From: Gekko japonicus
Lineage: Eukaryota
DNA: 64,000 nt
Direction: 5' to 3'
Assembly (NCBI RefSeq): GCF_001447785.1
Contig: NW_015164198.1
Location: 202,828 to 266,827 of the forward strand
The notes beneath the pieces are model-generated. The model had not been told where the DNA came from and made no database searches. It saw only the letters and a list, made by a program, of their open reading frames with translations. Below are positions 29,137 to 64,000 of this stretch, in pieces. Every line of letters begins with the position of its first letter. Position 1 is the first letter of the stretch. Both the position numbers and the translations under genes were made by a program.

Positions 29137-29278
29137 GATCCAACAGCACTTTCATTTCTATGACTTTTTCATCTCCCCCTCCCATGGCAGCCCCAAATGC
29201 CTCCTGAAATGCTGATTCTAGGGGACAAGGGATCCCAGGGGCAGCTTTCAGAGCATTTAGGGGTCAGTAGCAGAAGGA

Positions 29279-38587: not shown

Positions 38588-38792
38588 CCTGCCACGGAAG
38601 AACATTCCAAGAGCTTCCTCAATCTTCTAGAGCACTGAGTCCCCCTCCCCTCGCAGAGAAATTGCGAAAGGTTTCTCTTTCCCGCCCATTTGGTCATGTG
38701 ACGAGGGGAGGGGGAGGCACCTCTCTCTCTCAGTCCTAACCTGCCGCCGTGGAGAAGTAGAATTATCGTCCACAGCGGGGAAGGAGGGAGGG

Positions 38793-38929: not shown

Positions 38930-39030
38930 AACCGTTCTTTTAAGTAACGATTGTAACACTGCAGTACCCATAGCCTCCTGTTGAGAATCAACATCAAATG
39001 CATAATGTTTTATGAACATCAGAGGTGACA
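38930..39030 (-). pseudogene. DIRS tyrosine recombinase, C-terminal remnant only
   Basis: SPLMFIKHYAFDVDSQQEAMGTAVLQSLL resembles the F..HY end of DIRS YR; the rest of the domain is absent. Confidence 0.7.
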
Positions 39031-39100
39031 ATCCTGGTACCCTTGGTAGAGGGCAAAGCTTGTGCTGGGCTAGGGATAGTAGCAACGGGAACCCGGGGTG

Positions 39101-40389: not shown

Positions 40390-42379
40390 TGAGAATCCCT
40401 AGAACGGGAGAAACCTCCTCCAGGGGAGCGAGAATGCATACCACGCTGCCTAGGCTGTTGACGTTTAGACAGGTACGGTTGCTGAAAGGCGCCTCTGAAA
40501 GGTTGAGAGGCAGTAGTTGAAAAGCGGTAGCCCTTCCCCGTATTAGGGAGTTGGAAGTGCCTAGGAAAATACCCTGGCTTTGAAGGCTGTTGTTGTGAGG
40601 TTAATCCCAGCGATCTGGCAGTGAATTTTGTCTTTCTAACTTTCTCTAGTACCTCGTCAGTTGACTCGCTAAAGAGGAGCTTGCCCTCGAAAGGCAGATC
40701 CTCGACACGAGCTCTCGTGTCTGGGGGTAGGGCAGAAGTTTGCAGCCATGAATGTCTGCAGAGAACTATGGCCGAAGAATTTACTTTGCTGGCTGCATCC
40801 GCAGAATGTCTAGCTGCATTGAGTTCCTGCCTGGCTAAACGAGCGCCCTCGGCTTGTACCTGTTTGGCTTGATCTCTCTTATCGTCAGCCAAGGCATTTA
40901 AAAATGGGGTCAACTGTTCCCATAACATAACCTGATATCTGGACACGATAGCTTTAAAGTTAGCTATTCTCAGGGTCAGCACTCCGGAGGTATAAATTTT
41001 TCTCCCTAAAACATCTAGCTTCCTACCTTCCTTGTCTAAAGGGGAGGATTTTGGGCCACCCGTCTGTTTAGATGGAATCACCTCAGCCACTATTGGGCTG
41101 AGGATGGTGGTATAAAAAGAAGGCATCATCCTTCGTGATTTTGTAGAGGTTTTCTACCTTCCTAGCAGAACCCGTGACTAAAGCCGGTCTTGCCCAGTTA
41201 TTACGGGTAATTTCCCTAATGCCCTTTACCAAGGGAATAGCCACTGGCCCTGAATCATTGGAGTATAAAATTCCTAAGACTGGATCCTCCTCCAAAGGTT
41301 TGGGGGAGACATAATCAATCTTAAGGGCCTTAACCATACGAAGGAGTTGTTCGGAATAAACCCGCAAGTCCTGTGTAGGAGATATCGGAGTGGGATCGCC
41401 CACGGTATCATCTGGAGATGGAAGACAGGTATGCTCTGAGTCTGAGTTAGTCTCGATGTCAGAGGCCTGTTTAGAATGTAGCAGCTCTGGCTGCAAAGCA
41501 TCGTCCTGTCTCTCTGGGGAACTTGGACGCGTGGTGGACCGAGACCTAGCTCGACCTGTGGCGTGGCTTAGGGCACAAAGATTGTGCGACGTAGGAGGAG
41601 TACGGTACCAAGGTGGCAAAAACCATGGGGGAGCATGTTCCCAATCAGGAGGATAACCCCCTGAAGTGGCCTCTCCTCTCCTGCTGCCGGAAGAGCAAGA
41701 CCTGGAGGATTTGCAAGACGACTGAAGGCTGATGACGTCAGGCTTTGGTCCTGAAGGTGAATCTGGGGAGCGTGTATGACGCCAACGGAACTCTTCTGGG
41801 CTCGACGTCGAAGAGCGTTGACGTCGAGAGCTCAGAGATCGACATTGAATCGACCGCGAACGCCTTGACGTTGATGCGGTTGGAGGAGAGGTCTGACGGT
41901 TCGTCGACGTTGAGGCGGCATCAACGTTGATCGCCTTTGCCACTGCGGATACTGACGGCTCCGACGACGGACGCAACGGCGTAGACGGCGTGATTGCCCT
42001 TGTGCTTTTCGTAGGCACTTTTGGGGACTTAGTCTTGCCCGTTTTTGCCTTTTTCGAAGGCGGCTGGGCTGAAACGGATTTCCTCCGATCTTTCCCTGCC
42101 GAGCTTTGCTTCAGCTTGTGGGATTTAATAGGACTCTTAGAAGAGTCATTCACAAGTCCTGAGGGAGAGGGAGTGCTGGGTCCGACCGACAAAGCTTGCT
42201 CCCAAAGGGCCGCTTTATGTCTCAGTGCCCTGTCTTTTTTTATTTCTAGGGGTTAACATACCACAAATCTCACAGGAGCTGTTATTGTGGCCTTCTCCCA
42301 GGCACAGGAGGCACTTGAGGTGATCATCTGTGGTAGCCATTTTCATTCCACAAGCTTGACATTTTTTGAACAAAGCCAT
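40386..42379 (-). pseudogene. DIRS gag-like ORF1 (N-terminal Cys/His finger, Ser/Arg-rich linker, LAP2alpha-like C-domain), 2 frameshifts
   Basis: ATG at 42379 gives MALFKKCQACGMKMATTDDHLKCLLCLGEGHNNSSCEIC; continues in ORFs 41083-42192 and 40386-41129 (DKEGRKLDVLGRK...RHSWL...DLPFEGKLLF). Confidence 0.85.
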
Positions 42380-42711
42380 GGAACTCCAAACGTTTAAGGT
42401 AAGTTTTCTGAGGAAAATCAGCTTTTGTTTTAAATCCTTTACACTGAGGTAAGTAGCTGTAGCTCTGGAGACGTCCTTCCTTCACGGCAGCAAAAAAAGG
42501 ACTGAGAGAGAGAGGTGCCTCCCCCTCACCTCGTCACGTGACCAAATGGGCGGGAAAGAGAAACCTTTCGCAATTTCTCTGTGAGGGGAGGGGGACTCAA
42601 TGCTCTAGAAGATTGAGGAAGCTCTTGGAATGTTCTTCCGCGGCAGGCCTGCCTTCAGGCAGTCCCATGTGGGACTGCACAGAAGACACGATGATGAAGA
42701 CTGTGTTTAAT

Positions 42712-44445: not shown

Positions 44446-46886
44446 CAACTGTAGGATGCCAAACAGCCCTACTCAGCCCCTGAAGGTCACCACTTAAGTA
44501 TATGTTGCCCCAGGATGAGGGTGGGTGGGTCAGTAGCACACAGCAAATCAGCAAGCTGGAGCTCATTTTAAGGCACACTATCTAACCTTCCTATTGGCTG
44601 GCCCTAGTTGGAGCACTGCCGATAGCCTTTCATGTCACAGCAGAACAGAGGAGCTGGCACAACAGCATCCATGACTTCAATAGGTATGGATGAATTTCTG
44701 ATTAAAATGCACAGGAGTGGGCTGCATGACAATTACTGTCTCTTGCAAAATTTATCGAGCCGTCTAGTCAGCTGACAGGTAGGAGTTTAAAAGTGAATGC
44801 TACACAATGGACAAGAATGTTTTCACTATACAAAAGGACAGTCTGGAAAGCATAACCTTTTGACAGGGTGCAGGTTCAAGAGGAACATTTTCATAATTAA
44901 GATGGCTGCCCTGTTGCATACGCGATAGGTATATTTCCATAGCTGATATGAAATTCATTTTCTTCTTGCCACTCCACATGACACGACCCTTTGTTTGCTT
45001 AATGCATTAAGAGATCAATTTTGCAATCTATTTAAAACTGATCTTTCTTCACCACACCTAATCTTGTTTATATTACCTCTGTCAAAAACTGCAGCTTTTC
45101 TATGAAAATAAAAATCCTTTCCATCCTCTTTTGCCCTTTTACTGAGTAATCACTTATAACTTCTTGAGCAATATTATTATTTTCAATGTATTCAGTTCAG
45201 ATTAGGTACCGTTTCTCACCTTGTCTCTACAGACAAGTTTCTTATCAGAACTATGTTTGAATATGTGTTTGCTTTGGAGCTACTGCAAAAATTATTGCAC
45301 TGATTCTAAGTATATGGATTTCAGAAGCAGGTCCAAGTTAGTAGACTTAAGCCTACATGTCCAATCAGTCAGATCACATAGATGCAGAATAAATCAAAGG
45401 ATACACTTTCATAAGGCATCACAGATTAGAGTCAATTCCATTTTAAAAGTTAGAACTTCCTCCTGTTAGTTTGTCTTCTTTTGTAACTATCTGATTAGAA
45501 AAAATCCTTTTTCAATAGTTTGAGGAGGAAATCATCCATCATTATTAGAAATTATGGCTTGGATCCCATGACACCCTTCCACCAAGTTTTCCTCCAACAG
45601 AGGACTTCCTTCAATAAAGAAATACTTTTCTGACAGAGAAAGCCTTTCTCCACTAGAAAAAAACTCCATTGGAGAGGTTCTCTATCAAACAAAGATTTAA
45701 TTTTCTGAATAATACAATAACAGTAGGCAAAGCTAATATTTAGGAAAGGGTATGGTCATTAAGATTTTGTGAACCTTTAGGATGAAGGCGATAAACCATG
45801 AGGAGGAATGAGATTGTCTTGCAATGCAATGACACAATAAGTAAAATCTGTGCTTGGAATAAAGTAAACCTGCAGGATTCAATTTGTGACAGTATTGTCT
45901 AGTGTCAGCTTTAGATATTTTCACACCTGAAGTGAAAAACAACTGGAGCTCTCTCTCTTTCTTTTTTCTTTTTGGAATGGCAGATGGAGAGGCAGGAAAG
46001 TGATACCTGCTCTTGAAAGTGTTGCCCAAAGCAACTGTTTTATGTTATCTCCTAGAACTGGCCCTCAGTATGCTAGTTCCCACAGGGGAAGCAAATGCTA
46101 CAAGAGTCCCACTGTGTATGTGTTTTGATCCGCCTTCATGCCAGTGATGAAAAAATATTACATTAGGCCATCTGAATCGCAGAAGGGTTGTGATGACTGG
46201 GTGACTAGCATCTGTAATGCACACTGAAGTCAAGATGGAAGGAGCTTGATAGGAGTAAACAGAATGGTCATTATTTCATGTGCAGAAACCGATTACTCAT
46301 CCTAAGTGCATGCATATTGTATCAGTCAAGCAATCTGGTAATCAAAGAGTTTTTGAGCTGGAAAGGTTTGAAATGCATCTCTTCACATAATACAACCTCC
46401 TGAGCTTGTAATTTGTTCGCAAACATTTATGCATTATTCAGAGGTTTTTAATAATTTCGCCTGGCAACACATAAGTGTTTGTGTCAAGTAGAAAACTCTT
46501 CAAGATACAGGAAACAAGCCTGGTCCAAATTTCTGTTCTCCTAGGAATAGCAATTACAGGAATGCTTACTGTTTATCTCTCATGGATTTCAGTAGCAGTT
46601 TGCATATCACAGATCTGCACATATTTCTCCGATAATCTCTGAGGAAATGGCAAAAGGCAACTGCATCGCTCCAGTTTTCAGAGCAAAATTACCAAACAAA
46701 ACATCACTGTTGATGTAGGCTATAAACGATTCCGCCATTTTGTAGAGGCAGAGCTTGTCTGCCAGGATCTCAAGGTGATACTGCAGGAGGGTTGGGTCTA
46801 AGTGATGTAAGTCCATCTCCACTAGTATTGGACAGCCAAGGACGATATAGGAAGGGAGGGACTGTGGCTCAGTGGTAGAGTATCTG

Positions 46887-47330
46887 TGTTCTGGGTCAGC
46901 CAAGGCTCAGTGAGAGTGAGGACTCCTCAGGAGCCCCATGTAGCCAGTTTTGAGTCAGCACTCAGCAGAAGCCGGCAAGCAGGAAGGAGAGCTGCAAACT
47001 TGTCAGGATTCACAGTCAACAGCTGGTGCAGAACCATGAAACCTTTTAGCCCTGATTCAACAGGTGAAACTCAGTTGATCATTTCCAGCCTTACAGTATC
47101 ACCCACAACCTAAGAGCACTTCAGCCTGAAGCCAGCTCTTAGAGTAGTTGCAGGATTACTCCTGAGCAGCTGGCTCGAAGCATGACCCTTAAGCATATGG
47201 CTATAAAAACCAGCCAAGGGAGGCTGTTATTTGTGGAAGCAACAAGTCAATATCCTTCTGATTCAGTGGCCACCACATTGGATCTTGCTTCTACCCTGTG
47301 ACACTTTGGACCACTTCCTGACTCTGCCTG
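46887..47330 (+). mobile_element. Possible LTR fragment following a tRNA-SINE head (46855-46886)
   Basis: TG start right after a truncated SINE A box; TATA-like CTATAAAAA at 47201; no clean 3' end or TSD found. Confidence 0.4.
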
Positions 47331-47339
47331 TCACTTTTC

Positions 47340-48875
47340 CAATCAAATTTATTGGAGAAATGGTCACCCTTCCTAGATTATGCAATGGAATCTGAATCAC
47401 CTATACTAGCTATTTCTTTTTTTTTTTTGTCTTTTAAATTTTTTTTATTTTCTAATCTGCAGAACTACAGGGTCAGGGTAATGGAACAACCTAAAATAAA
47501 GAGTAACAATGATCCAAAATACAGACATATAAAGTTATTGATATGTCTCTGTTATCTTAGTAGTAGAACATGAAGATTACTAATGCAAAAATGTCAAGCA
47601 AGCAATCACAGTCTCTTTAACTAAGGTGTAAATATCATAAAGTTAAAGTTATGAATTAAAAATAAACAACAGGCTAGCAGAGTTAATCTATTTTGCAATT
47701 TCCTTTCCTCTTGTCAAAGTCCAAATAAATTTTTAGTTCTGCTTCAGGGTCAGAGAGTTTTGCCAGACTCTTTGAGATGGTATCACAGCCTTCCCCATCT
47801 TTCTCTTCTTATTATTCTGTGTCTTTGTTCTCCTCCACTTTCTCAGGTCCATCTTCCACTTTCTGTTGTTGCTTCAGGAACATCCACTTTATTTCTTTCT
47901 CGCCAAAATTTCTGTGAGTCCCTTTTGCAACGTATCCAGCTTGACGTTAAGGTTGGTCATCTGGTCCAGTAGATGGCGCACAGCTACAGCAGTCAGATTG
48001 GGAAAGTCTGTGGTTACTTCCGGTCTGGTGACGGGCAATGCTGTGCTGGCAGTTCGTATTATAAGTTTCGCTTTCAACGCCATTTTTTCTGCTCACTGCG
48101 TCATTGTTTATATAAGAGGAAAGTTTAAAAGTTCTCCGTAAGTCTGGAATTTATCACTTTCTTGCTGGTCCACTGCACACTTCATCATAATCCGCTTCCT
48201 TCGAGCCGCCCTTTCAGCCTCCCGCTTTAAACTCAGACATTTCGGGATCGGGCATTCCCCTCTCCCTTCTGCTTGTTTGGGGCTTTGGGGCAGCTTTACT
48301 AGTAACGATTTATCAATTGTTTGCTGGATTATGGCTTCACTCATATTTGTACTTGCGTTCACTTGGTATATAGAGAGAATCGTTTCTCGGGATCCTTATA
48401 CGCTCTGTCCAGTGTGTGCCTCTTGGTGCCATGCTGGCTCCATGTCGCGGGGGCCTATCGGGGCAAAAAGGTCCCTCAATCCTTTGGCTTCTGCCTTGGG
48501 AGAGGCACCTCTCATGCCCCAGGCTGAGACCCCCCTACAAGGGGTCTGGGGGGTCCAAGATCAACTCGGACCCCCCCATTGGCATGTTTGCAAGGCGTTC
48601 ACATCAGAGCTGTGATGGAGCACACCCGTTCTGTGAGTCGCCGAAACCGGAAGTCTCCTATACTAGCTATTCCTAATCAATATAAATGTATAGCATTATT
48701 TTAATAATTTTATATACTGAATTTAAGAATGAAAAACTTCTATAGATTTTATTATTACCAATGTTTACATTTTAAGGTGTGCTTTGTTAATATTGTGAAT
48801 TTTGTATTGTGAATCTTGATACATCTTTTTGTATTGTATTGCATTGGAAAACTTAAAACAGGGTTTTTTTAAAAA
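47340..48875 (+). mobile_element. Extreme 3' end of an L1/Tx1 LINE (47340-47414 plus 48672-48875), split by the 47415-48656 insertion
   Basis: KFIGEM/LEKWSPFLDY resembles the ORF2 terminal W.PF..Y motif; an AT-rich 3' UTR continues after the TSD. Confidence 0.6.
47415..48656 (-). mobile_element. Full-span ORF2-less L1-like retroelement (5' UTR, ORF1-like remnant, 3' UTR, A-tail)
   Basis: 15-bp TSD CCTATACTAGCTATT at 47400-47414 and 48657-48671. Starts GACTTCCGGTTTCGGCG with a CpG-rich 5' UTR. Heptad-like ORF 47889-48083, then FLKQQ plus an acidic tail in another frame; poly(A) at 47415-47429. Confidence 0.8.
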
Positions 48876-49191
48876 GTATGAAACTTCCCACACCGCACTG
48901 TAGTGGCAATTTGTGGAAGACGACTGTAGTTTTGAGGAGATAGTAGTGAGCCACAGATTTCTCCATTTGGGCCCAAAGATGTCTGTTAGACCTTAGAGAG
49001 TTACTGGCACTGAAGCTACTCTCTCTAAAAATATATATCTGTTCACCTTTCTTTCACTAATGCACATGGAGAGGAGTTGTTTAGATGTTAGTCTCATGTA
49101 CCTGGCACTGGACTGTGGAGACTTCAGGAATTCTTTGTACCAGACACTTGTACCACTTATGTTTATCAGTTGACATTGGAATGTTTCAAAA

Positions 49192-49850
49192 GTTTATTAC
49201 GGTCATAAGACCAGCCACAATAGGTACAGATAAAAGAGCAATTTATAAGTTTTAAAATGGATAAATACACAAAAAGTAAGAACATGTGTGTATATATCAA
49301 ACTAGTAAAAAACACACTCACTTCATTAATTTATTTCCCAGCAACTGACATTTCCTTTTTCAAGTGATACCACTTTCTGAGTGCTATCACACAGAATTTT
49401 GCTACTGCGTATGAAATAGTTCTCTGGCTATCATCTAATAGATATATCCAAAGGGTTTCAGGGCTAAAATCTATATAATACTGTAGTGGTTTGAATCTAC
49501 AGAGTAATGGGATAATTAATTGTAACCTTTCTTCTTGATAAAATTTGCAGTGCAAAAATATATGTGTGACAGATTCAACCACTTTATTTGAACAGGGACA
49601 GCAATGCTGCTGCAAGGGCAGGTGGGAGCATCTCTCATACAAAACTGCAGAAGGAAATGTGTCAAACTGTGCTCTAGAGAAGACCCATCTGCATCTTTTG
49701 TTTGTAATATCCGAAAGATATGGGGATGCAGTGTAGCTCAGTCCTTTTCTTAGGCTTTTATAATTTGAAGGAAGCATTACTTCATCATTTTGGAACTCTA
49801 TATGAATTAGTCTTTGGGTGAATGTATAACTTTCTTCCAAGGCCAGGTAT
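49192..49850 (-). mobile_element. RTE-X-like LINE 3' end
   Basis: YLSDITNKRCRWVFSRAQFDTFPSAVL...CPC...ESVTHIFLHCKFYQEER (CCHC-like knuckle); 3' end GCTGGTCTTATGACCGTAATAAA. Confidence 0.75.
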
Positions 49851-50535
49851 AGGGATGACATGCATGCACACACACAGCTAATAGTCAAAGAGTTACATCC
49901 CCCCCAAAAAAACATCGACTCAGGCTCAACTGCGGAGCAGCACTGAGCACACCAGCCAACATCTGGAGTCTGCCTGCTGTGATTTGGGGTTCCTACAGCT
50001 CTATTGTATTCTCTGTTAATTCCTGTACTTTGTTGATATCTCGCTATTATAAAGGTTTCAATAAAACCTTTTCCCTTCACCATTGGTGTGCTTATTGTCC
50101 TCAAATCTCTTGGGGGGGGAATCCCTCTTGGCAAAACACCCGTAAAATGAACAATTTTTCCTCCTCGTTACTGTGATTGTAGAGGGGAGTGGGCAGCAGT
50201 ACAGAGGGATGATTTTCACCCACTCAAAGTGATGTGGCTTTGTGACATAGCCATGCAACTAAAATTAGTTATTTCCTTATGGTGTAATCTCATCAGACTG
50301 TTTACATAATCCTTTATTGTCTGGCTTGATTTAGCAAATAGACCACTATTCTTTTTGTAGTTTGAATGGTGCCAATTGCTGCTGATTGGGGATAGATGCC
50401 ATGGTTAACAAGAAGACAAATGACATTCTCTCACACACACAAATAGGAAGAGATTTTGTGAAACTTTTCTACCTCATCTCCTCTTCCTTACCCCACTTTT
50501 TGTGGGCGGGGATTTACCACAGCTTCTCTTATAAT

Positions 50536-50881
50536 TAGGGATGAACCACAAAGCAAAATTCATCATGATTTTTGTCCTGTTCATGGTTCGCAAACTTCCA
50601 CATACTTTTAAAGCAGTTTGTGGCAGTTTGTTGCAGCTCGTGTCTACAGCAGAAAGCAGGGGTTTAAAGGGACTCCAAGTCCCTGTATACCCTTGTTTTC
50701 TGTTCTATGCGAAAGCTGCAAAAACTGCTGACTGTAGTCCCTTTCAGTGGGGTTTCTGGGGGCCACAAACCAAGAACCATTGCAGTTCACAAACAAACCT
50801 CCCAGTTCAGTCTGTTTTGTGGTTCAGACATAAACTACGAACTAATACAAACCTCTTTTTTCCAGTTTGTGCCCATCCCTA
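50536..50881. mobile_element. hAT MITE (TAGGGATG TIR)
   Basis: TAGGGATG...CATCCCTA; 8-bp TSD CTTATAAT/GTTATAAT. Confidence 0.8.
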
Positions 50882-51859
50882 GTTATAATAAAATGAGAAA
50901 ATTTGAGGGAAAAGGTGAAGATTTTTGTGTTGGTGAGTCACTGGAATGGGGAATATGATGTCTAATTCCTACATACTTACCTTCAGTGGTCAATTCTAAC
51001 CCTTTTAAATAGAAGTACGCAACCCACAGTCATGGTCTTACCACTCAGGTTTTGTCCTGACAACATGAAAAAGTCACTGACATACAGGGGGAGCAGGTTT
51101 GAGTTTGGTAGAATCTGTAAGACAGCTGTCACGGTGTTTGCGCACTGTAAAGAGGAGGTCAAAGACCTTGTATGGTCTTAATAAACAGAACCAACTGACT
51201 TCATATGTATTTTGGCACTAATATGTGCCCTATGGCATCATTTCCTGAGGTTTAGTACAATATTAATAATAAAAAAGGCTATTCCAGATTACATCGAAAT
51301 CAGCATGGGGGGGGCATGCTTTCTGCTCAAACAGAAAATATTAAATTCAGTGGAATAAGGTACAGCTGCTGATAGCTTTGCTTTGAAATGGCCGAATGCA
51401 CACAAATCCTCACTTTGAGTTGAGGTTTGCTTCTTTTTTCCCCCTTCTTCTACTTTTCTCATTAGGTTGTTTGAAAGAAGAGAAACCATGGCTGGGGTTG
51501 GGAAACAGAGGAAAAAAAGACCTGATCAGGTTCAGGAGCTCAATAAAGCACATGCCAGCAATAAATCCTGGTTTAGCCTTTGGCTTTTAAACACCCTGAA
51601 TTCATTACCTTTATTTGTCCAACCACTCTTAAGATGTTGTGACAACAAATTAGGCTCGGATTTAAATTAGAGGAAAAAATCACAGGGCAATTGGCATTCT
51701 CACATCAGGTCTTTCCTTTCTGTCATAAGAATGACTGGCTGTGGTACAAGTCTTGCAACTTGCCCATCAGAACTTTAATTCCTGTTTCCTATCCCTATGT
51801 TTGTATTAGTTTTATCAGTAGTAATAAGTGATGTAATGTTTAAAAATGCAAACAACAGT

Positions 51860-52035
51860 TATGCCTCAATGGTAGAGTAACTGCATGGAGTAGCACCCAG
51901 GTTCAATTCCAGGCATAAGCAGTTAAAAGGATCAGGTGAAAGACTTCCATCAGAGTCCCTGGATGCCACCGCTGGTCAGAGTAGACAATACTGATAGACA
52001 ATAGTCTGACTCAGTATAAAAGAACATCATGTATT
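51860..52035 (+). mobile_element. tRNA-derived SINE, degenerate
   Basis: CTCAATGGTAGAG...CCAGGTTCAATTCC...GTCAGAGTAGACAATACTGA...TCTGACTCAGTATAA. Confidence 0.7.
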
Positions 52036-53544
52036 CATTTAAATCATCAATTTATATCTACCTTGACCCGTCTTGTATTACAATCCATTGGGAGCTCAAT
52101 AATTCTTCTGATTCACTACCTCAGTCTGCAAAGACAGGATGTTTCTCAAGTGTCTGGATGACCAAACACATATTGGAGGAGCTGCCTTGGGCTTGGAGGT
52201 TCACAACTTGTAGAAGGCCCCCTCCAAGGAGAAGTATTTGAAAAAGATTAATTAACACATTGATTCTTCCCTATATCTTCAGAACAAACCCACCCCTTCC
52301 CCTGTCATAAAACCAAGTAATACATTTCAGGAAAAGGAAAAGGAAAATCTCTGAGATCTTTTTCTCTCTGAAAAAAGGAGCAGTATTGGATGTTTAGCAA
52401 TGTTTGATAAATGAACAAAACAGTAGTAATAAATTGTGTTTGCTTTGAGTGTTCAGATAACTGAATTATTTCTAAATGTTGCAAACAGGTTCCTTGTGTA
52501 TGGCTACTTTTCACGATCCTCTCTAGGGGAATGATCTATGGTCCACTGCTCTTTGTGCCACTAAAATTTTATTAGTCCACTCCATATTGGCAAACTCATT
52601 GACACAGAGGGTCATGTCACAAAACGAGAAGATTAAAAATTGCCCTTTGTCTGTCTTCTTAGTATGTAGTGATGCAGAGTTCCACACTGGGGGAGAGTAG
52701 ATAATTTCAAAGGAATCCAATGAAAATGAGATAAGCAGAGTAGGCACTACATTATTTGAGTTGAAGGAGTGATGCTGCCAATGCCCTCAACCAAAGATCA
52801 TTGGTGCATACTTCCTGAGGAGGCAACTGGAATAATGATGTGATGTTGTGGTTAAAGTGGTAGACTAGGACCAGAAATACCTAGGCTCAAAATTCCACTT
52901 TTCCATGAAGACTCTGGGTAACTTTAGACATTTATGGCTAAGTCGTACATTTCTGAAAACTTCATGGTACTTTGGGGGTTTTTTTTTAAGAAGGACCTCT
53001 TCCAGTTCCCTACTCCCATTGCAGATCCCCATTTTCCCCTCTGTGCAAAAAGTGAGATGTGCTCCCAGGAACAAAATTAAGGGAGTCAATATATATTACA
53101 CTAAGGAAAGCCCCTGAATAGTTGTATATACCCCTTTCTCTTAATAAAACCCAACTCACAGGATTTTTGTGAGGATAAAACAGCGGATAACCAAGTTTTC
53201 TGCCATTAACTAGTGTTACATACCGCAAGGTGGAGCCTAGAATTTTGGCAACCCTACTGTGAACTCCTCATTAAAATGAAAGGACTTTTTTTAAAAAATG
53301 CTAAATAATATATTGCAGCCTCATTGTCCAGTCAGTTAATGGAGCTAGTATTAGTAACTGCGCTGATGTGAGTAACATGCATACTGGATGGGGGATCTAT
53401 TAGCATTGGCCTCCCCTAGTGCACTTCCATCTTATATTGTTTCTTAGTCATCTGTCCACCTCCTGCTGTATTAGTTACCATCTACTGTGCATGTATGTGG
53501 AGCTGACTAGGAAAAGTGGCATTAAATGGCACCATAAATGATAT

Positions 53545-53695
53545 TATACTTAAATTTTAACAATTATTAATATTATGTTTAATTATGTTAATGTATTGTG
53601 TTTTATCATATTGTTGTAATTCACCCTGAGCCTTGCACTGCAGGGGCAGGTGGGCTAGAATTCAAATAAAATAAAATCAATCAATCAATAAATGC
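53545..53695 (+). mobile_element. L2-type 3' tail
   Basis: TTGTAATTCACCCTGAGCC...GGGCAGGTGGGCTAGAATTCAAATAAAATAAA. Confidence 0.55.
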
Positions 53696-54657
53696 ATAAA
53701 ACAACAGGACCCCAAAGCAGGTCCTTTCTCTATGCATGAACACTGCAGACACCATTTTTTCAATGGACAGCCAATTCCAGAGTCTGCGGCAGTAGTGATT
53801 AAAGAGACGGGCACCAAAATCACACAGAACTAAAGACTCCCTTTCCTCTCAAGACCCCCCCCCCCCCCCACAACCCCCCCCCCCCCCGTGTGTTCCTCCC
53901 TTGCAAGGAACTGATTGGAAGGAAGGATGCCATTGCCTGGGAAACCAGTGGAATCAAAGAACATGCTACATTCCCTCTCTGTAGCTTCTCTGGAAAGGTA
54001 ATAAACTGGGAGTGCTATACTGCACCTCTCCCCTGCCATCCAATTGGTAGGAATGATACTTGCCATTGCCTGGGAAAGGAAGTGGAATTATCACATGCAC
54101 ATGATCCTGCTGGCTTGGTAAGCACCCAAACTTGAAAACAACATGGATTTTGGGAGAGGATAGTTTCATTTCCTAATACTGTTCCAGAAAACCACTGTAA
54201 CTACCTCCATCAGTGATTTTCATGTATCTTTTTGGCTCCAGAATTCTGTTTTACACACCCCTAGTAGCAACCCTACCTGATCTCTAGACATCTTGAGTCT
54301 TTATGAAGCTGCAATGATTCTCCAGGGGACTGCAGATAAGAGGTGGTATTCTGTTTTAGGCTGGAGGAAGTTTTTCCAAGCTAAGAGGTTCATCCAGATC
54401 TACTGAAGTCAAAGGACATTTCCTTCTCCTGGAGAAAGACTTCAAACATTGCTTCCTGGAATGGTAGGATACAGGCCAATATAATAAATAACTGATCATG
54501 AAGTGGTAACAGTTGGTGAAAGTGGCTATCTTCATGCTTGCTACCAATCTATATATCTACTTCTCAAAATGGCCACATCTATGGATACTTAAATCTGGAG
54601 ACTGGAGCCATAAACAGACAAAAGATATCTTTCTATAAACCTGAGAATAGCCCCAAG

Positions 54658-54851
54658 CAGTGTTCCCTCTAAGATGAGTTAGTGTGAGCTAGCTCACCAT
54701 TTCTTAGCCTCCTGCTCACACATTTTTGTCTTCGCTCAGGAAGGATGGCTCCAGAGCCAACTGATTTATGCAGTAGTCAAATCGCTTGCTCACAACTTTA
54801 ATGCCAGTAGCTCACAAAGTAGAATTTTTGCTCGGGTTAGAGGGAGCATTG
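54658..54851. mobile_element. hAT MITE (CAGTGTTCCCTCTAA TIR)
   Basis: CAGTGTTCCCTCTAA...TTAGAGGGAGCATTG; 8-bp TSD GCCCCAAG at 54650-54657 and 54852-54859. Confidence 0.9.
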
Positions 54852-55719
54852 GCCCCAAGTTTTCGGAAAAATCTGAAATCTTTTTAAAACTGTCCAAAAC
54901 TTGTACTTTTAAGAAGCAAATACTCTCTTCAGTGGCCATTGTGTTGGTTGTTAAGCAACCACAACACTATAGCCAGCCTTCAAGCTTTGGTTTATTAGCA
55001 AAAGGTGGGGGGCAGGACCCATTCCAGGCCTGTTCTGGCCTTTAAGGGAAAGGAAAGCAGAAATAGTGGGGAAGGTCCCTTGCTTATTTATTCTGTTAAA
55101 AATTTCAAAGTGTTCTGATGCTTTTCTACATAGTTTAATAGTCTCCAGTGTTTTTAGTTTGCCATGGATAAGGATTCTCTGTGTTCTCTGTTTAAATTAA
55201 CCAAGGAGACTTAAGAAGCACTGTGCTGCAGTTAAAAGTACAGGCCACAGAAATTTCTGTCTAAAATTACCATGGGAATTGTGGCAGAATGGGCCTGCTC
55301 TGGCCTGCAGGCCATCTCACCCTGCCCTCCAAGGTTATCCCAACACCTGAAGAGGCTTTTCTTTCTCTCTCAAGTAGCCCACCACCACTTTGCAGGAATT
55401 GCCCACTGAGAAGGTCATGACTCCCAGCTTCCCTTCCAAGTCCTGCAGCATTGCCTCTGTGCCTCCTGTTGCCCAGTGCCTCATCACCACAGCAATGGTT
55501 TACTGCCTTGGAGGAATAGCCACTGACCACCTGTTGACATTTTTCCTGGTGGTCCTTTTAAAATAGTGTGTCTGGGATGGTGGAGGCCTATGTGGTATGG
55601 AGAACCACTACCAGCATCCAGAATTATAAAGTATTTATTAAAGAGAAAATGTTTACAAGCATACTTTCAGCACAGCACCAGATTGAGCAAGGGATTCAAA
55701 AGAAATGGGCAAAGTACAT

Positions 55720-55722
<3 letters not shown>

Positions 55723-55750
<28 letters not shown>
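55723..55750. repeat. (CT)n microsatellite
   Basis: Seen directly. Confidence 0.9.
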
Positions 55751-55753
<3 letters not shown>

Positions 55754-56752
55754 CTGTCAGTTGTTGGAATATAGGATAGGCTCCTTAGTTTAGGATGTTA
55801 TAGATCTCTACAGAGTTACCATTACCTTGAACATGGTCAAAATGGCTGCCTCCTCAGTTAAGAGTTCTGTCTACTCTCATAGACTCCACACCAATCAAAG
55901 AGACCTTCCTCCTTGCTTTCCTGAATTTTATCACCTCTCTTTTCCCCATCCACTGACCAGGTCAGGCCAGGTCAGACAAGTGTTCCCCAGACCTCCTTCC
56001 TGGAGATTATTCCTAGAGCCTTTCTAGTATAAAGTCTTCCAAATCTCTGTTCTCTGCTTGGAGAAGGGGGAGAGCTTGACCCACCCATTATCTCCCCTAC
56101 TAGATCTATTAGCATTTGTATGAAGGTGGGCTGAGGAACGTCTGGAAAGCAATTGAACTGATATCCCTCCTTCCTGCCTGTTCCTTGCCCGAAAGGGGAA
56201 AAACAAAACTTTTAAAACTCAGAGCAAGGGTTTTGCTCATTTCAAACCTCCAAAGAAAAATACATTTCTTCACAACAATCATGAATAGCACAGTACAGGG
56301 GGTTTATTCTTGTTAGGTGGGAAAAGAGAACATAATATACTTTATATTATGGCAATTAACTCCACAGTTCACCATTGTGTAGTGTGGTTTAATTAAAAAA
56401 ATAAACAAGAAAACTATACACTGTATCAAAAGCAACCTAATTGGAATCAATCTATAAACTAAATTGCCCCCAAAGTTGGAAAGTTCCAGCCATTTTCATA
56501 CTTAGAGGGCATGAAAAAAAGTATATTATAGAGGGAAAAATTAATTAAAAGTGAAACATTTCACTGAGCTCAGCGGCCAACCTCTAAAGCTAATAACATT
56601 GTGCCCCAGGCAACTTTGTAAAAATTATTTGTGTGTTTAACCAGCATCTCTTCTATTATCTCTGATTTGTGACAAACCAATCTTTCAGCATTTGCCTGCT
56701 TCCCTCAATGATCATACCTCCCATTGACACCCACAATTTGGAAGTATGTTCT

Positions 56753-56809
<57 letters not shown>
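56753..56809. repeat. Compound (TG)n(AG)n microsatellite
   Basis: Seen directly. Confidence 0.9.
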
Positions 56810-56814
<5 letters not shown>

Positions 56815-56903
56815 CATTACATTGTATTGGTGACACTCAATATAAACAAGTCATTCACTCAATAGTAGTGAGCAGAAGCAATTCTAACCATCACAAATAG
56901 ATG

Positions 56904-57033
56904 NNNNNNNNNNNNNNNNNNNNNNNNNNNNNNNNNNNNNNNNNNNNNNNNNNNNNNNNNNNNNNNNNNNNNNNNNNNNNNNNNNNNNNNNNNNNNNNNN
57001 NNNNNNNNNNNNNNNNNNNNNNNNNNNNNNNNN
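56904..57033. other. Assembly gap (130 N)
   Basis: Run of N. Confidence 1.
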
Positions 57034-58180
57034 ATGAATATATATGTTCATTAGCATGCTTCCCAGAGCACTTCACAAATTGTCTTGTAAGGAATACTAT
57101 TCTGGTTCATTTTATTATCACTGAGAAGGGATTACTGATCAGTTTTAATGACAGTTGGAAGCCAAAGAAGATGACAGTACTAGAAGCAAAGTACTGTATT
57201 ATGCTTAGAGGACTGTGAGCAGTGTGGGACAGTAAACAATCTAGATTCAAGTCATTGATGAATGAGAACAAATTCTAACTCGATTGCTGACAGAACAAGG
57301 AACAAAATGATGATGTCTGAACAAAGGAACAGAGGCAGGAGGGATCCTTTGTCCCATATGTGAAGCAGGTGGTTTTAAGCAGGTTGAATGCTGGGCTGGT
57401 CAAAACCCATATACCTTTGGGTGACCATCCAATGGGGAAGTGTACAATTCTCCTCCTTACTACAACCCTTGTCCCACTTGGCTTTTGTCCATGCATGTTT
57501 CATGATTGGTTTATTTAAAATACTTACGTACCCACTTTTCTGTTGAGCATCTCCGGCTCCAATGCTGCACAGCCTTTTTGGGTGATCAGAGACTCCTCCA
57601 ACTATTTTCATTTCAGAAAAGCAGATGTTTGCCAATTGAACTCACTTTGCTAGCAAAGTCCACTTAACTATCAAATCAAACACTTCACCAGATCACTTCA
57701 ATGATTTGCTTGCAGTTCAAAATGAGGAGCACTTTGAGTAGTTTTGTGTCTGACCAGTAACAGCTTTAAACATATTGGCTGGCAGAGTAGCCCCTGTTGG
57801 TTCATGCTCATAATTTACTGGCCGGATTGGATTATGCATGCTCCACTCTTACCACTGGGCAGCTCATGTACTTCTCCGGGTACCCTCCACCCAATATTAA
57901 GCACTTTTTAGTCTTTACAGTTAACCTGTGTATAACTCTTCATAGAAGAGAAAAAGAGCAGGGTGCAGTAGATAATATCCTATAACTTACAACAACTATG
58001 TTTAGTTTGAAGTGCTGTCTGTTAAAAGATGCTGTCATCCTACCCCCCCTCCCTATTATTACAAAAATCTTTACTGAGCTCTGTCACCACCCATCTATCC
58101 ACCAACAGGGGCACATATAATACAACTCACAATGCCCTTTCTGCTTTTTTTTCTGAAAGAAGATCCGGGATTGCATTTTT

Positions 58181-59843
58181 ATTTTTTTAAAGCCCCCGGA
58201 GGGGATTTTTTATTGATTTTTTTATAACTACAAAAAACTACAACAGAAAAAGGGGAGGGGGAATACTACACATACGGGAGAAAGTAAAATACCCACTACT
58301 ATCTAAAAACCCAAGAAAGGAGATCCTCCAACTAGCTTTGATACATCAAGTCTTCTCATCGTTGTTCCTTTTATAAACTGAGTCAAACATTTAAAACCTT
58401 TTACCCTTAGAGTTTACATTTAACTGTCTAGTAACAGTACCCCCAATCATCCCCAAGAACCAAAGTTCTCAAAGGTACAATTCAGAGTCCTTCAGCCTTT
58501 ACTACTTCTTTTCCCTTCTCTTCCGCAACTTGTAGGGACTTTTCGGGGCTGCTGCTCCCTGCTCAGACAGAGAGTCCTCGCCAGAAGAACCAGTTTCCAG
58601 CTCGCCACTGGACCTACTGTCCTCTTCCTTTTTCTCGTCCTCTGACCTTCCCAGCTGTTCCTTTAGGAATTCTTGAGCTTTCAGAACAGTCTCCCCTGCT
58701 TTCAGGGGTGTTGCAGCCACCGCTTTCAGGATAGCATCCCTGACGTGCCTCTTCGAGAATCTTACTACAATTTCCCCAGGCAGATTATTTTTCTTTATAT
58801 ATCCTGAATATGACCTGTAAGCCACATCCATGTTGTTGAGTAGCGATTCTGCCTTCATTTCTGTTACTGGGGCTAGTAGCTCACTCATCAGTTCTTTAAG
58901 ATTCTCTCCTCTGTTCTCTGGCACACTCTGGAAACGCAGGACCATGTTAGCCTTATCCATTTGAACTTGCAGCATTTGATCTTCCAAGGAAGTTTGTTTC
59001 TTTTCCAACTTTTGCACTTTCTTCTTCACTTTCTGCATTGCTGTGGCCACTTCCTTTACTTTCTCAGCATCCTGCTTCATTATTTGGATCAAGTCAGTTA
59101 TTTGCGTTTGTTGTGCAGTAATACTTTGTGTTACCATGGACATCTGTTCTTTGAAGTTATTCAGCTGTTCCAGTAGAGGGCACATGTAGTCAGCTACAGC
59201 CTTTGCCGTCTCACTGGTCGTTTCCGGCTTTGGGCTCTCCGGTTTTGTTTTCAAAAGTCTTTCTTTGTCCCTCTTCCCCACCATCTTTTTTCATTTGTTT
59301 ACTTTCGCAAAAAATTTTAAAGTCTCTGAATGTGTGCTTGACCGCTTGGCCTCACTTGGGTAAGTACTTCTAGACAGTTTATATCGCATTTCCTCCCGCT
59401 CCCCCCCTCAATCGCTCAAAAATTCATGCACATGGGAGGCATCCCTCCCTCACTCGCTTTTTTCCCGTTCCATCAGGTAGGGTGGGGAGCTACCTTTCCT
59501 CTTTAAACGCTATGAAACTGACTCACATTCATAATCGGTCATTCGACCTCACTTTCATTTCTTTTCTGCCGCATGATCTCCTTCACTCGGCCCGGTCAGT
59601 GTTGCTAAGCCCATTCGGTCTCTCGGCATGGAGAACCGCCGAAACGAAGAGGTGCCTCAATTCTCAGGCATTCTGCCCTCGAAGAGGCAGCCTCTTGAGA
59701 GTTCCCTGGCCAGGGTCCCTTCACCGGGACCCTGGGGGGGGGGTTCGCAAACCTGCGCACTCCCTTCTTCGGCCAGAGCGCAGCCTCACCCCCAGGAGGT
59801 CCGAGAGGTGTGACTGCTAGTGCGCCGCCATAAACCGGAAGTC
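58181..59843 (-). mobile_element. Full-length ORF1-only (half-L1/HAL1-like) retroelement, ~1.66 kb
   Basis: TSD CGGGATTGCATTTTT at 58166-58180 and 59844-59858. Starts GACTTCCGGTTTATGGCGGCG; ~560-bp CpG-rich 5' UTR; ORF1; ~320-bp 3' UTR with AATAAA and an A-tail; no ORF2. Confidence 0.88.
58502..59284 (-). CDS. L1 ORF1p-like protein (coiled coil + RRM, CTD apparently deleted, acidic/basic tail), 260 aa, open
   Basis: Heptad region followed by VLRFQSVPE..GENL, DVAYR, LPGEIVVRFSKRHVRDAIL, equivalent to L1 ORF1 RRM motifs (NLRIIGIPE / AHR / PRHIIVKF). Confidence 0.85.
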   Translation of the reverse strand: MVGKRDKERLLKTKPESPKPETTSETAKAVADYMCPLLEQLNNFKEQMSMVTQSITAQQTQITDLIQIMKQDAEKVKEVATAMQKVKKKVQKLEKKQTSLEDQMLQVQMDKANMVLRFQSVPENRGENLKELMSELLAPVTEMKAESLLNNMDVAYRSYSGYIKKNNLPGEIVVRFSKRHVRDAILKAVAATPLKAGETVLKAQEFLKEQLGRSEDEKKEEDSRSSGELETGSSGEDSLSEQGAAAPKSPYKLRKRREKK

Positions 59844-60615
59844 CGGGATTGCATTTTTGTTGTTGTTATAGGGAGTTGTTGTTGTTCTTATTCTGTCTGC
59901 ATTTTCAGTTTTGCCCTCTGAAGTAAAAAAAAAAGCAGATACATATCAATTATTAAATAAAAGATTAAGTCTAAATAAGTAGCTTAGTTCACATTTATGC
60001 CAGACCGTGCTTATGCTTGCTCTTTGCTCGAATACCTGAAGCAGGCGAATTGGAATTGTTTAATCTTAAGCAGTTATTACCTTATTTCAAAGATATATTC
60101 CATAATGAGCTTAATTAAACAAAGACAGCCCAGGAATGGAAAAGATTAGGATTATCTCATTAAGGGATGCATTATTTCTAATGAGATTTACACAACTATT
60201 TGTCTTATTTTATCAAGCCAGTGTATTATTCCTCTCTCTCTTAGCCCTCCTGCAGTGAGACATATCTATACCTCCAAGAGATAGCACAACCCATTTTAGC
60301 ACAAAGAAATAAACACAGAGGCAAATGTTTCGGTTGAAAAATTTCTCATCAGTTTTCAATAAAGCCAAGGCTAGTATATCTAGATAACCCCTTTCTAGGG
60401 TTCCCACCCCCCTTTTTTAAAAAAAAAGGAAAGAAAGAAAAGACTTATTTACAAACCTTTAGGCACAGGAGCTATTCCATTAAGGTGAATGATTTTCTTT
60501 AAGGTAAACTATACATTAGTCTAAATGGGAAATATCCCTGTTTTGTGCATCGTAACTGTTACAGCTTATTTGAAAGAGACTGGTTGTATTTATGAGCTGG
60601 GAAACAGACTATTGG

Positions 60616-60693
60616 ATCTCTGTTTTTTCCTTCCTTTTCATACTATGTTTGCATTGTATGCTGGTCTTAAGACCATAATAATAAAACTAAACT
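60616..60693 (+). mobile_element. Very short 3' end of an RTE-X-like LINE
   Basis: GTATGCTGGTCTTAAGACCATAATAATAAA plus ACTAA repeats, the same end as 49192-49216; 13-bp TSD AACAGACTATTGG at 60603-60615 and 60694-60706. Confidence 0.8.
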
Positions 60694-60885
60694 AACAGAC
60701 TATTGGTTAGCTAAATCTCTTAGAATGTATGGTCCAAACTTCTGTATGTTTTACACATGGTGTAGCATGACCACTTCCCATGTGCATGTAGAAGCTCCAG
60801 AGTGACCACAAGCCTTTGTGATCAGTCCAGTTGGGTTGCATAGAAGTGGCTAACTAATGCATAGTCTTCTATGTACAGGTCCCTA

Positions 60886-61321
60886 TTCATAGAATCATAG
60901 AGTTGGAAGGGATCTCCAGGGTCATCTAGTCCAGCCCCCTGCACAAGGCAGGAAATTCACAAATACCTCCCCCTCCACACACCAGTGACCTCTGTTCCAT
61001 GCCCAGAAAATGACAACAAAACCTCCAGGATCTCCAGCCAAACTGGCCTGGAGAAAAATTGCTTCCTGACCTCAAAGTGGCAATCAGCATTTTCCTGGGC
61101 ATGTAAGAAAGGGCCACAAGAACTAAGCACTGATGCAACCCTTCCTGCCCTCCCTCTCATGATCTGCCTAGGTTCACAGGATCAGCATTGCTGTCTGATG
61201 CCCATCTAGTCTCTGTATGAAATCTCCAAAGAAGGAGAGCCCACCACCTCCCAAGGAATCCTGTTCCACTGAGGAACTGCTCTGTCAGGAAGTTCTTCCC
61301 AATGTTTAGCCGAAAATTCTT
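60886..61321 (-). mobile_element. CR1 LINE 3' end (second subfamily)
   Basis: TCATAGAATCATAGAGTTGGAAGGGATCTCCAGGGTCATCTAGTCC is a CR1 (ATTCTATG)n tail in reverse; the upstream part encodes FRLNIGKNFLT...QWNR.PWEVV. Confidence 0.9.
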
Positions 61322-62199
61322 CACAATGAAGTTTCACTTGTGAGCTAAGACTTACTCCCACAACTTAGCTCATGTAAAAAGCTGGATCCAACCAGTTTTT
61401 CCTCTGATGAAAAAAGGAAGACAGGATTCTCTTGGATCACTGAAAAGGTTATATTTTGGATCATGGGAACTGTATGGCCAAAGGCCGAATGGAAAGTGGG
61501 CTAGAAGGGAATTAGCTGAGATTAAGCAAAACAGCTGGCTGGATCCAACCCAACTCTTACACACTCTGGCTGTGTATGAACTAGGACAATGTTTGGTAGA
61601 TATCTATCATTTCTTGTTAATTATGTTTGCTCTTATAAATCCATTTTAGATGTTATTGTTTTACTTATTTGAAATATTCTCTTTTGGTAAACATGTAAAG
61701 CAATTTCCTGCACAAATCTTTAGTTGTCCAGAAGTAAATCATTCTCCTCTTGCCCAATAGTTGTTTACACCAAGTCCTGGATCTTTCTTATGATCCACTG
61801 TGAATTTTTGATAAGTTCACTTGCATGGATATGCATACAATACACATTTATATGCATTATCTTATATGTATTTGATCTTTGTTGCAATCTTTATTTCCCT
61901 AATGATCATATGCATCCAAGGGTACCCAGTACTTTCCCTCCTTCCCACTCAAGAGACATCTATAAAAATGGGCAAAATAATTAAAAAATATATGTAAAAT
62001 ATTACTATCCCAGTTTATCTCCATAGACTTGGCGGCTAATAAACTACAGCAAGTTGCAAAGCCACCAAAACAGCACAATCGTCCATAAACAAGATAAAGC
62101 ACACAGGTTAAAAACACAGCCAGATCTGTCAAAACAATTTACCATCCACCAAATGTAAATGTAATTAAAACTTGTTACATACCTACTTAAATGTATCAA

Positions 62200-62390
62200 A
62201 TGATTATATTCCAGTAGACTGGGTCTATCTCAGAGAAGGCTGGCAAATGGACAATGGTAGGAAAGGGTATCCCCATGAGAAGGCTGTCTGAGGAACACAA
62301 CTGGGAGATGCAGTTGAATAAGTGTGAGGGCCCCAGGTCATTAAGTGATTCTGAGTTACTAATCAGTCCACCCCACTCCATTTTTTAAGA
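62200..62390 (-). mobile_element. Old L2 fragment
   Basis: SLNDLGPSHL...AFSEIDPVYWN motif. Confidence 0.5.
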
Positions 62391-62452
62391 AGTCTTACCA
62401 TTGTTATTCATGTAAGTCCATGTTATCATAGTTATTTTGCACATGTACATTT

Positions 62453-62769
62453 ATATATATATATAAAGGTTTTATTGACTCCTAAAAAGGAGAGGTATTT
62501 CGCTTAAAATAGAAAAATTGGGAGGGTATATAGTGGGAGAAAGAAAAAGCTGAGTGATATATTAACTGGTAAATTAAACTGTTAATAATGTCCAATTATT
62601 CTTCTTAGGCTTCTTCTGTGAGCAGTCAAAGTTCTTTTTTCAGTCCAGTTATAGGTATTATCTACGTTAGTATGTTAGTAATGTTCCTTTGAATTTCTGT
62701 TAAAAAGCTTCTTTCGGGCGCCTTCAGAACCGCTTCTGTGCGTGCTGGTTTCTTTTTCACTTCCGTTGG
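62453..62769 (-). mobile_element. 5'-truncated retroelement with (TA)n tail, possibly the 3' end of an ORF1-only element
   Basis: 14-bp TSD GCACATGTACATTT at 62439-62452 and 62770-62783; AATAAA before the tail; short charged reading frame NGSEKETSTHRSGSEGARKKLF...* before the UTR. Confidence 0.7.
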
Positions 62770-63107
62770 GCACATGTACATTTTCACTCAGCCTTATGTG
62801 AGGCATAGTTCATCTCATTTAAAGACTCGGCCCAACCATCCAAGACCCTGGGCAAAAACAGTTTCCCCTACTGTGAAGAGACTAAAGTCCCTGCAAGTCA
62901 AGTCAACAAAACACCATCACAGCTACCATGCAGTTGCAAAAATGTCTGAAGTGGTTGATGGGCATGCAAGAAGATCAGATGTTTGGCTCACAAGTATGAT
63001 TATGACTACTGAACAAGTCATGGTCAACTATCAAATATGTTTGCCATAGAAGAGTGTTCGACTGTCCTCGACCAGAGCTAGGGAGATCTGGGCCTTACAG
63101 GATTTGA

Positions 63108-63155
63108 TTCCTTCCTTCCTTCCTTCCTTCCTTCCTTCCTTCCTTCCTTCCTTCC
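63108..63155. repeat. (TTCC)n microsatellite
   Basis: Seen directly. Confidence 0.95.
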
Positions 63156-63645
63156 AGAACAGAGTGCTAAATGCCCAGTTTGTTTAACTAAGTGAAGTAT
63201 CAGATGTTACAAACAATACTGATTTCCTCTTTTTCCAAAAATAATAATAAGAAAAACCTAATTTTTTGTCAATTTGATGCATAGATAACAATTTAAACTT
63301 TTTATAGGAAATTATAAAAAACATGTTTTTTGTTCCATTTGCCATATGCATATCCATGTTTGTCCAGCTAATGGATTTGCATCTGACTCATATTATAAAG
63401 AAGCATAACAAAGTCCTATTATATCTGTTAGAAATACTGTGAACAGCTAACTACATGAATTTCATACTTCTGGTAATAAGAGAGAAGAAAAATGAAAGGG
63501 AGGGGGGGGATCACTTCTTATGGAGACCACAGAGAGTCACTATTCAACACATAGAGCATAAAACAGGGTTTTTTCCAGTAAAGAGAATCCTTTCAGGTGC
63601 CAATGTTATTACGTAACAGGGGAGGAAGCAGAGAAACATAGTACT

Positions 63646-63974
63646 GAAGCTGTACATGCATCAGCCCCAGGTCCATTCGAGCATCTATAGGATCATGTTG
63701 ACAGTCTGCCTAGGGGAGGTCACACCGAACAAGGTAATTGAGGCTAGTATTTCTCTCTCCTGCAATTGCCGAGGCAGTATCCTTATTGTCTCTTATTATC
63801 TCTTCAAACTGGGATTTCTGCCAGCACTTCAACTTTACAGCTGTTAAACTGTTTAGAAAGTTGAAGGTTGTTGTTAGCAATTGCTAAGAAATCCTGATAG
63901 TAGCGAAAAAAAAATAAAAATCCACGGAGCCGTACCTTTAGCGTCTTTATCGGGCGTCGGCCAAACCGGAAGTC
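63646..63974 (-). mobile_element. L1-like 5' end fragment (GACTTCCGGTT start)
   Basis: CCAAACCGGAAGTC at 63961-63974 with a CpG-rich downstream segment; possible 7-bp TSD TAGTACT at 63639-63645 and 63975-63981. Confidence 0.5.
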
Positions 63975-64000
63975 TAGTACTATCTTCAAATGCATACCAC

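Follow-up and report, generated by a model that had tools for sequence, protein, structure and literature searches.

HAL1 elements are ORF1-only derivatives of L1 that arose independently several times in mammals (PMC5753468, PMC5786205, PMC8535693). They are listed among the bipartite non-autonomous LINEs, in which internal deletion has left an autonomous LINE with its 5′ and 3′ parts alone (Kojima 2018, PMC5786205). The ORF1-present members named in that account are HeT-A, HAL1, and Ag-Sponge, whose proteins are thought to multimerize with those of the helper; ORF-absent types are listed there for no groups other than RTE, Ingi, Vingi, and R2 (PMC5786205). No report of a squamate HAL1 or other ORF1-only L1 parasite was found in the literature surveyed by listing, and a prior Repbase or Dfam entry is possible.

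Here we analyze a 1.66-kb retroelement, element A, located on the minus strand (59843 to 58181) of a 64,000-nucleotide stretch of the Gekko japonicus genome (the whole stretch is hereafter called the window). The original prediction, made from the DNA letters, depicted it as a complete and relatively young ORF1-only element of a HAL1-like family that supplies its own RNA chaperone.

Boundaries and coding content of element A

Element A is flanked by an exact 17-bp direct repeat (Table 1). Among random junction pairs used as a control, a repeat of 17 bp was seen in 0 of 2,000 and one of 14 bp in 1 of 2,000. The 15-bp target site duplication (TSD) originally proposed is an equally valid reading, because the final 2 bases of the repeat overlap the GACTTCC start of the element. 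The lizard clade-1 terminus reads GACTTCCGGTG-N8-ATGGCG, and both motifs are found in element A with a shorter spacer between them; the zebrafish GGACTTCCGGTT start fits too. At the opposite end, the A-tail that had been described is present but comprises merely 7 A plus one T ahead of five A that belong to the TSD. The nick reconstructed from these ends is 5′-TTTTT/GT-3′. The canonical L1 endonuclease site is TTTT/AA; the insertion site, originally said to end in a T-run, is T-rich but does not reproduce the canonical motif. TSD, tail, and T-rich site together uphold the view that element A, represented by a single copy in the window, is a retrotransposed insertion.

Table 1. Coordinates of element A, its parts, and the related element B in the window
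Feature	Position	Strand	Description	Basis
5′ TSD copy	59842..59858	.	17 bp, exact; 15 bp if element A begins GACTTCC (59843)	repeat and chance test
L1 5′ terminus	59826..59844	-	GACTTCCGG, closely followed by YY1-like ATGGCG	lizard clade-1/zebrafish terminal consensus given in PMC5381506
Leader	59285..59843	-	559 nt, CpG-rich; 15 ATGs ahead of ORF1, no uORF longer than 32 codons; stable fold in first 144 nt (z -2.3)	
L1 ORF1 without C-terminal domain (CTD)	58502..59284	-	open, 260 codons	
Coiled coil	58949..59215	-	aa 24 to 112; RhxxhE absent	AF2 model; motif scan
RRM	58691..58948	-	aa 113 to 198 (to 206 in model)	AF2 model and fold match
In-frame junction	58679..58693	-	54 residues gone (last RRM strand and CTD body); breakpoint ambiguous	
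Retained C-terminal segment	58505..58690	-	final helix of the CTD, then an acidic stretch and a basic tip; homology with P0001 C-terminus	
3′ UTR	58215..58501	-	36% GC; tracts rich in C or in T; ORF2 remnant not detected	
3′ end	58181..58214	-	AATAAA, short G/C hairpin, 7-A tail	
3′ TSD copy	58164..58180	.	exact repeat	
Element B	47415..48655	-	1.24-kb ORF2-less L1 derivative; 5′ terminus as in A; 10 kb from element A	

The leader is CpG-rich, as had been stated for the 5′ UTR: its 559 nt contain 28 CpG, with an observed/expected ratio of 0.73 versus 0.28 across the window, and we infer that it carries an internal Pol II promoter. The number of upstream ATGs exceeds that in shuffled sequences (15 versus 8.6 ± 2.1), and the first 400 nt alone hold 10 of them, compared with 1 to 3, counted by eye, in eight Anolis clade-1 consensuses. 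There are 12 upstream ATGs, which is the chance level, in the leader of element B (see below); since this second leader is ATG-rich as well, the feature may be a trait of the clade. An ORF on the opposite strand of the leader (59512-59820, 102 aa) was discarded, being at chance level (112 of 1,000 shuffles) and having no Pfam match.

The predicted 260-aa L1-ORF1-like coding sequence proved to be a single open ORF homologous to squamate L1 ORF1. An exhaustive phmmer search returned 188 relatives at E ≤ 0.001; among the best 150 of these the closest is P0001, with 40% identity. Protein searches found none more than about 40% identical to the ORF, word-indexed homologue searches gave nothing at near or shorter lengths, an alignment search returned 4 distant proteins, and the exact ORF protein is absent from the protein collection searched. 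Of 29 relatives looked up, 14 are named, and each of the 14 comes from a squamate (monitor, gecko, agamid, and snakes). In a tree that includes 76 of the 95 rows, the ORF clusters with P0001 and P0002 (support 99/95).

Detection by protein profiles, which had been proposed as a check, worked in part: a Pfam scan of the ORF gave weak coiled-coil matches only, with no match to Transposase_22, whereas a family profile of 17 sequences matched human ORF1p (2ykp) with an E value of 2e-13. A single-sequence PDB search with the ORF gave no match. The AF2 model (mean pLDDT, 85) finds its best fold matches in human ORF1p, including the RRM structure 2w7a (Z 11.1, rmsd 2.8, 92 residues aligned). The ORF is therefore a squamate L1 ORF1, and both the L1 origin and the squamate host anticipated for the element stand on these relatives, profile, and fold matches. 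In the 41 relatives that were scanned, Transposase_22 was recognized at E ≤ 0.01 in 14, six of which exceed the curated cut-off, and an endonuclease domain continues from ORF1 in four gene models. As side observations, this Pfam family is a poor detector of the squamate L1 ORF1 clade, and P0008, P0009, P0010, P0043, P0118, and P0145 are squamate L1 ORF1s misnamed in databases (for instance, myosin-6-like, apolipoprotein A-IV-like).

Downstream of the ORF lie 321 nt including the tail, with AATAAA at 58214-58209, in agreement with the 3′ UTR of about 320 bp and the polyadenylation signal initially reported. On the sense strand of this region no ORF2 remnant was detected at E ≤ 1; the same queries recovered the ORF2-bearing 3′ end at 690-1010, used as a positive control, with E values of 1e-8 to 1e-13. 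This confirms the reported absence of endonuclease and RT sequence and supports the non-autonomy of element A and its need for ORF2p in trans. Lizard clade-1 3′ UTRs measure 194 to 570 nt and contain C/T tracts, and clade-2 inter-ORF spacers measure 270 to 384 nt with 40 to 50% GC, according to the consensus descriptions in PMC5381506. Judged by length, GC content, and tracts, the 3′ region of element A fits a clade-1 3′ UTR better than a clade-2 spacer.

The 3′ end of the element also resembles that of an ORF2-bearing L1 fragment at 1-1192 in having AATAAA, a hairpin, and seven A. The likeness is gone once the last 45 nt are removed (13/200), and the hairpin of element A is not significant on its own (22/200). 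The fragment itself is a 5′-truncated L1 (about 300-1192, plus strand) with an ORF2 C-terminus (weak zf-RVT match), AATAAA, a GC hairpin, and a 7-A tail. All four of the L1-like 3′ ends that were folded form a small hairpin beside AATAAA, with a short stem and a loop of 4 nt (~58189-58208, 1170-1183, 47447-47460, and 62481-62492); the structure is significant among the four only at the ORF2-bearing end near 1170, and a role as recognition signal is at most a lead.

The C-terminal domain of ORF1

In an element described as complete in the original prediction, the ORF is open yet lacks 54 residues of the CTD region. The missing block follows the RRM and was recognized by comparison with 16 relatives, P0001 among them. 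When the query was left out of the profile, the match ran over positions 36 to 205 and picked up again at 261. Both anchors that bracket the block are spanned by 65 of 151 relatives, with an inter-anchor length of 84 residues in 57 of the 65 and of 30 residues, by hand count, in the query. The last 62 residues of the ORF align with P0001 beyond the CTD body with a score of 86 (shuffles, 30.8 ± 5.8; 0 of 2,000) and are unmatched against the CTD body itself (310 of 2,000 shuffles). Because they match P0001 past the body and not the body, the gap corresponds to an internal, in-frame deletion of 54 residues rather than to a divergent tail. Its exact breakpoint is ambiguous owing to VLK-like words on both sides in the relatives.

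Among the 151 relatives, 74 extend as far as the end of the CTD and 64 are fragments that stop near the match; inspection by eye did not show the junction in any of the remaining 13. P0035 was considered as a sharer and rejected, since its 34-residue gap differs. The AF2 model rests on alignment A3, in which residues 199 to 229 were set on the start of the relatives' CTD; no gap was opened there, so the last strand and helix of the model do not constitute independent evidence.

Aligned by profile, the human ARREW and YPAKLS motifs fall within the missing block, which includes the equivalents of human R261/R262. Human ORF1p mutated at RR261-262 or YPAKLS282-287 is lost from RNPs, and retrotransposition is severely cut, in the experiments reported in PMC2951350; RNA binding by ORF1p has been proposed to occur via the cleft between RRM and CTD, as put forward in PMC6428221. 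With CTD residues needed for RNA binding and RNP formation in the human protein deleted, and 15 ATGs upstream in the leader, it is doubtful by this analogy that the clipped ORF1 would work as a normal self-sufficient RNA chaperone, which counts against the self-supplied chaperone envisaged earlier.

Element B and other repeats in the window

A search of the window for the 5′ motif returned three starts: element A, 48655, and 63974. The one at 48655 belongs to element B, which has AATAAA at 47449, a 12-A tail, and a 15-bp TSD of its own (47400-47414 / 48657-48671) at an insertion site that is not T-run-like. Its 572-nt leader is collinear with that of element A (278 of 542 columns identical, 51%; z 9.9, 0 of 200 shuffles) and folds strongly over the first 146 nt (z -3.1). 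The coding region tentatively contains a decayed ORF1 N-terminus and coiled coil (best, weakly supported match E 0.001, to P0002); the ORF1 profile gave no match to it, and ORF2 was not found in element B. A 78-codon upstream ORF in the element B leader was dismissed as being at chance level (127 of 1,000) and not conserved in element A. An own TSD, a collinear leader, and the lack of ORF2 in element B indicate that L1 derivatives lacking ORF2 are a recurrent feature of this genome. Between A and B the 3′ regions hardly match (z 2.5, 2/200), so the two may be independent one-offs.

The third GACTTCCGGTTT start, at 63974 (minus strand), opens a stretch that extends to about 62470, with a pyrimidine-rich segment, a hairpin, and AATAAA (62476) ~1.5 kb downstream. 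This element C, perhaps an older and short derivative of L1 or a set of unrelated pieces, was not retained in support of recurrence, as no TSD longer than 8 bp was seen and the ORF1 profile did not match. An Rfam scan of positions 45000-64000 gave no match.

The window holds further repeats. A decayed L1 ORF2 fragment (RT end to C-terminus) lies at about 12300-13560 (plus strand), with an apparent internal gap and no visible tail. Two adjoining RT C-terminal fragments in opposite orientations, without a Pfam match, occupy 29267-30151 and are presumably RTE/BovB-like. At about 39000-42250 (minus strand), overlapping frames with weak LAP2alpha and Dam matches and RT-like text form what we take to be a decayed DIRS-type retrotransposon, and a 278-residue open frame with a zf-RVT-like end (E 0.002) at 49334-50167 (minus strand) is the 3′ part of another LINE. 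Dispersed repeat pairs, 82 to 96% identical, are located at 7761-8202 / 20338-20784, 14813-15065 / 28892-29140, 8963-9232 / 17810-18074, and 38584-38737 / 42498-42651, the last of which is inverted and flanks the DIRS-like region. A 141-bp unit is tandemly duplicated with 97% identity at 19166-19448, and a 130-N assembly gap at 56904-57033 adjoins TG/GA microsatellites.

Origin of element A and comparison with known systems

In a neutral decay simulation of the element A frame with assumed rates, the probability that the frame stays open falls from 0.43 to 0.19 and 0.015 as divergence rises from 1% to 2% and 5% (0.34 at 5% if indels are left out). An open frame being improbable under neutral decay, the copy is either young or selected; exact TSD, high CpG, and open frame all accord with the youth originally assigned to it. 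A young or selected copy leaves little time for two clean deletions after insertion; the losses would thus predate or accompany it. Element B is a second, likewise indirect, argument that they came first.

Our preferred reading, to which we attach about even confidence, is that element A is a recent full-length copy from an ORF2-less, HAL1-like non-autonomous squamate L1 lineage in which ORF1 has eroded. We counted against it that a single copy is seen in the window, that protein searches gave neither a close relative nor a sharer of the junction, that the 3′ regions of A and B hardly match, that the ORF1 remnant of B is weakly supported, and that a junction has a one-in-three chance of being in frame anyway. 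Transcription of a source copy would have started at the internal L1 promoter, with polyadenylation at the AATAAA that this copy carries. As the TSD, the tail, and the lack of ORF2 suggest, the ORF2p of an autonomous L1 would then have taken the RNA in trans and nicked a T-rich site, and target-primed reverse transcription of the 1.66 kb, aided by the short length, would have run to completion and left the TSD. Packaging was most likely provided by helper ORF1p, or was unnecessary. On the simplest view the clipped ORF1 would be a passenger heading for loss; alternatively, by analogy, it might serve as a putative coiled-coil handle joining helper ORF1p oligomers.

The main rival is a one-off dead-end insertion, in which the RNA of an autonomous L1 lost both CTD and ORF2 through splicing, RT template jumps, or premature polyadenylation and was inserted once by helper ORF2p. 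The single copy is as this account would have it, and the repeated VLK words near the junction could supply microhomology. Spliced insertions of L1 exist in humans and are generally dead ends (as characterized in PMC5860796), and premature polyadenylation can in principle give 3′-truncated, ORF1-only insertions (a route considered in PMC4859970). The event would require two separate internal losses at once with no ORF2 remnant, and element B independently has the same architecture. Although the length of 321 nt is near the 270 to 384 nt of clade-2 spacers, a 3′ region of 36% GC with C/T tracts is clade-1 3′ UTR-like and not like a clade-2 spacer of 40 to 50% GC. On this evidence we consider a dead-end insertion rather unlikely, if worth serious attention.

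A more speculative and, in our estimate, improbable scenario is that a squamate half-L1 lineage shed the CTD under selection, with the protein becoming an adaptor for helper ORF1p or a mobile dominant-negative poison of L1 RNPs, and with A (coiled coil and RRM) and B (a coiled-coil remnant alone) as graded steps from HAL1-like elements toward protein-free bipartite parasites. The coiled coil, RRM, and basic tail would then have been kept, and the adaptor, assembling together with helper ORF1p, would bring its own short RNA to ORF2p.

That element A represents a HAL1-like family with an intact, functional ORF1p, the CTD deletion being private to this copy, was the model first advanced. ORF1-only L1 families did arise several times in mammals, as recounted in PMC5753468, and the ORF is open with coiled coil and RRM apparently intact. 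The model demands an in-frame deletion of 162 nt during or soon after a recent insertion. Element B has lost still more of ORF1, and the leader carries 15 ATGs against 8.6 ± 2.1 in shuffles, with 10 in its first 400 nt against 1 to 3 in Anolis clade 1. We regard this model as quite improbable. Insertion of a full-length L1 followed by genomic deletion of ORF2 and CTD would account for both termini and a TSD like those of a full-length L1, but it is very unlikely given the two clean deletions needed, the lack of any ORF2 remnant, and the little time allowed by a TSD without mismatches, a high CpG content, and a frame that is still open. An assembly artefact, with a young repeat collapsed and non-adjacent L1 parts joined, is similarly remote: the assembly is gapped ~1.1 kb away (130 N at 56904-57033), but neither junction has a long repeat, frame and TSD are preserved, and the layout is repeated in element B.

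Were the CTD-less ORF family-wide and kept open, the lineage favored here would amount to a deletion experiment performed by nature on the contribution of ORF1p to a non-autonomous element. The issue, which is the same for HAL1 and HeT-A-like elements, is the chaperoning of its own RNA versus mere docking onto a helper. A family would also offer material for asking which 3′-end features are recognized by reptile L1 ORF2p. Should element A exist as one copy alone, it would be a neat but unremarkable defective L1 insertion.

To our knowledge, known HAL1s keep the CTD. Element A resembles them in its L1-clade origin, its L1 5′ end, a single ORF1 with no ORF2, a poly(A) end with TSD, and dependence on L1 in trans. 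It differs in residing in a squamate, in the squamate type of its ORF1, in the deletion of the CTD, and in having been seen as one copy. Because a complete ORF1p (coiled coil, RRM, and CTD) is lacking, we call it HAL1-like rather than a member of HAL1.

With Anolis L1 clade 1, in the description of Boissinot and Sookdeo (2016, PMC5381506), element A shares the CpG-rich 5′ end, the AATAAA and tail, the C/T-tract 3′ UTR, and a coiled coil without RhxxhE, and its GACTTCCGG...ATGGCG start is similar. The dimensions given there are larger for both leader (792 to 1,465 nt versus 559 in element A) and ORF1 (1,026 to 1,101 nt versus 783). Element A also differs in its many upstream ATGs, its shortened terminal-motif spacer, and the lack of ORF2; neither the 0.8- to 1.5-kb leader nor the ORF2 abutting or overlapping ORF1 of autonomous clade-1 elements is found.

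SpIREs, as presented by Larson et al. (2018, PMC5860796), are likewise L1 insertions that carry internal deletions, show the hallmarks of L1, and have a defective ORF1p. They lose the 5′ UTR, or 5′ UTR and ORF1, and keep ORF2, whereas element A keeps the leader and has no ORF2. In the assays of Sokolowski et al. (2017, PMC5605252), truncated versions of human ORF1p entered heterocomplexes and acted in trans to suppress L1. Those truncations are nonsense alleles in full-length L1, in contrast to the internal in-frame deletion of the ORF2-less element A, which is known from sequence. Among the bipartite LINEs, elements A and B sit between the ORF1-present and the ORF1-absent types.
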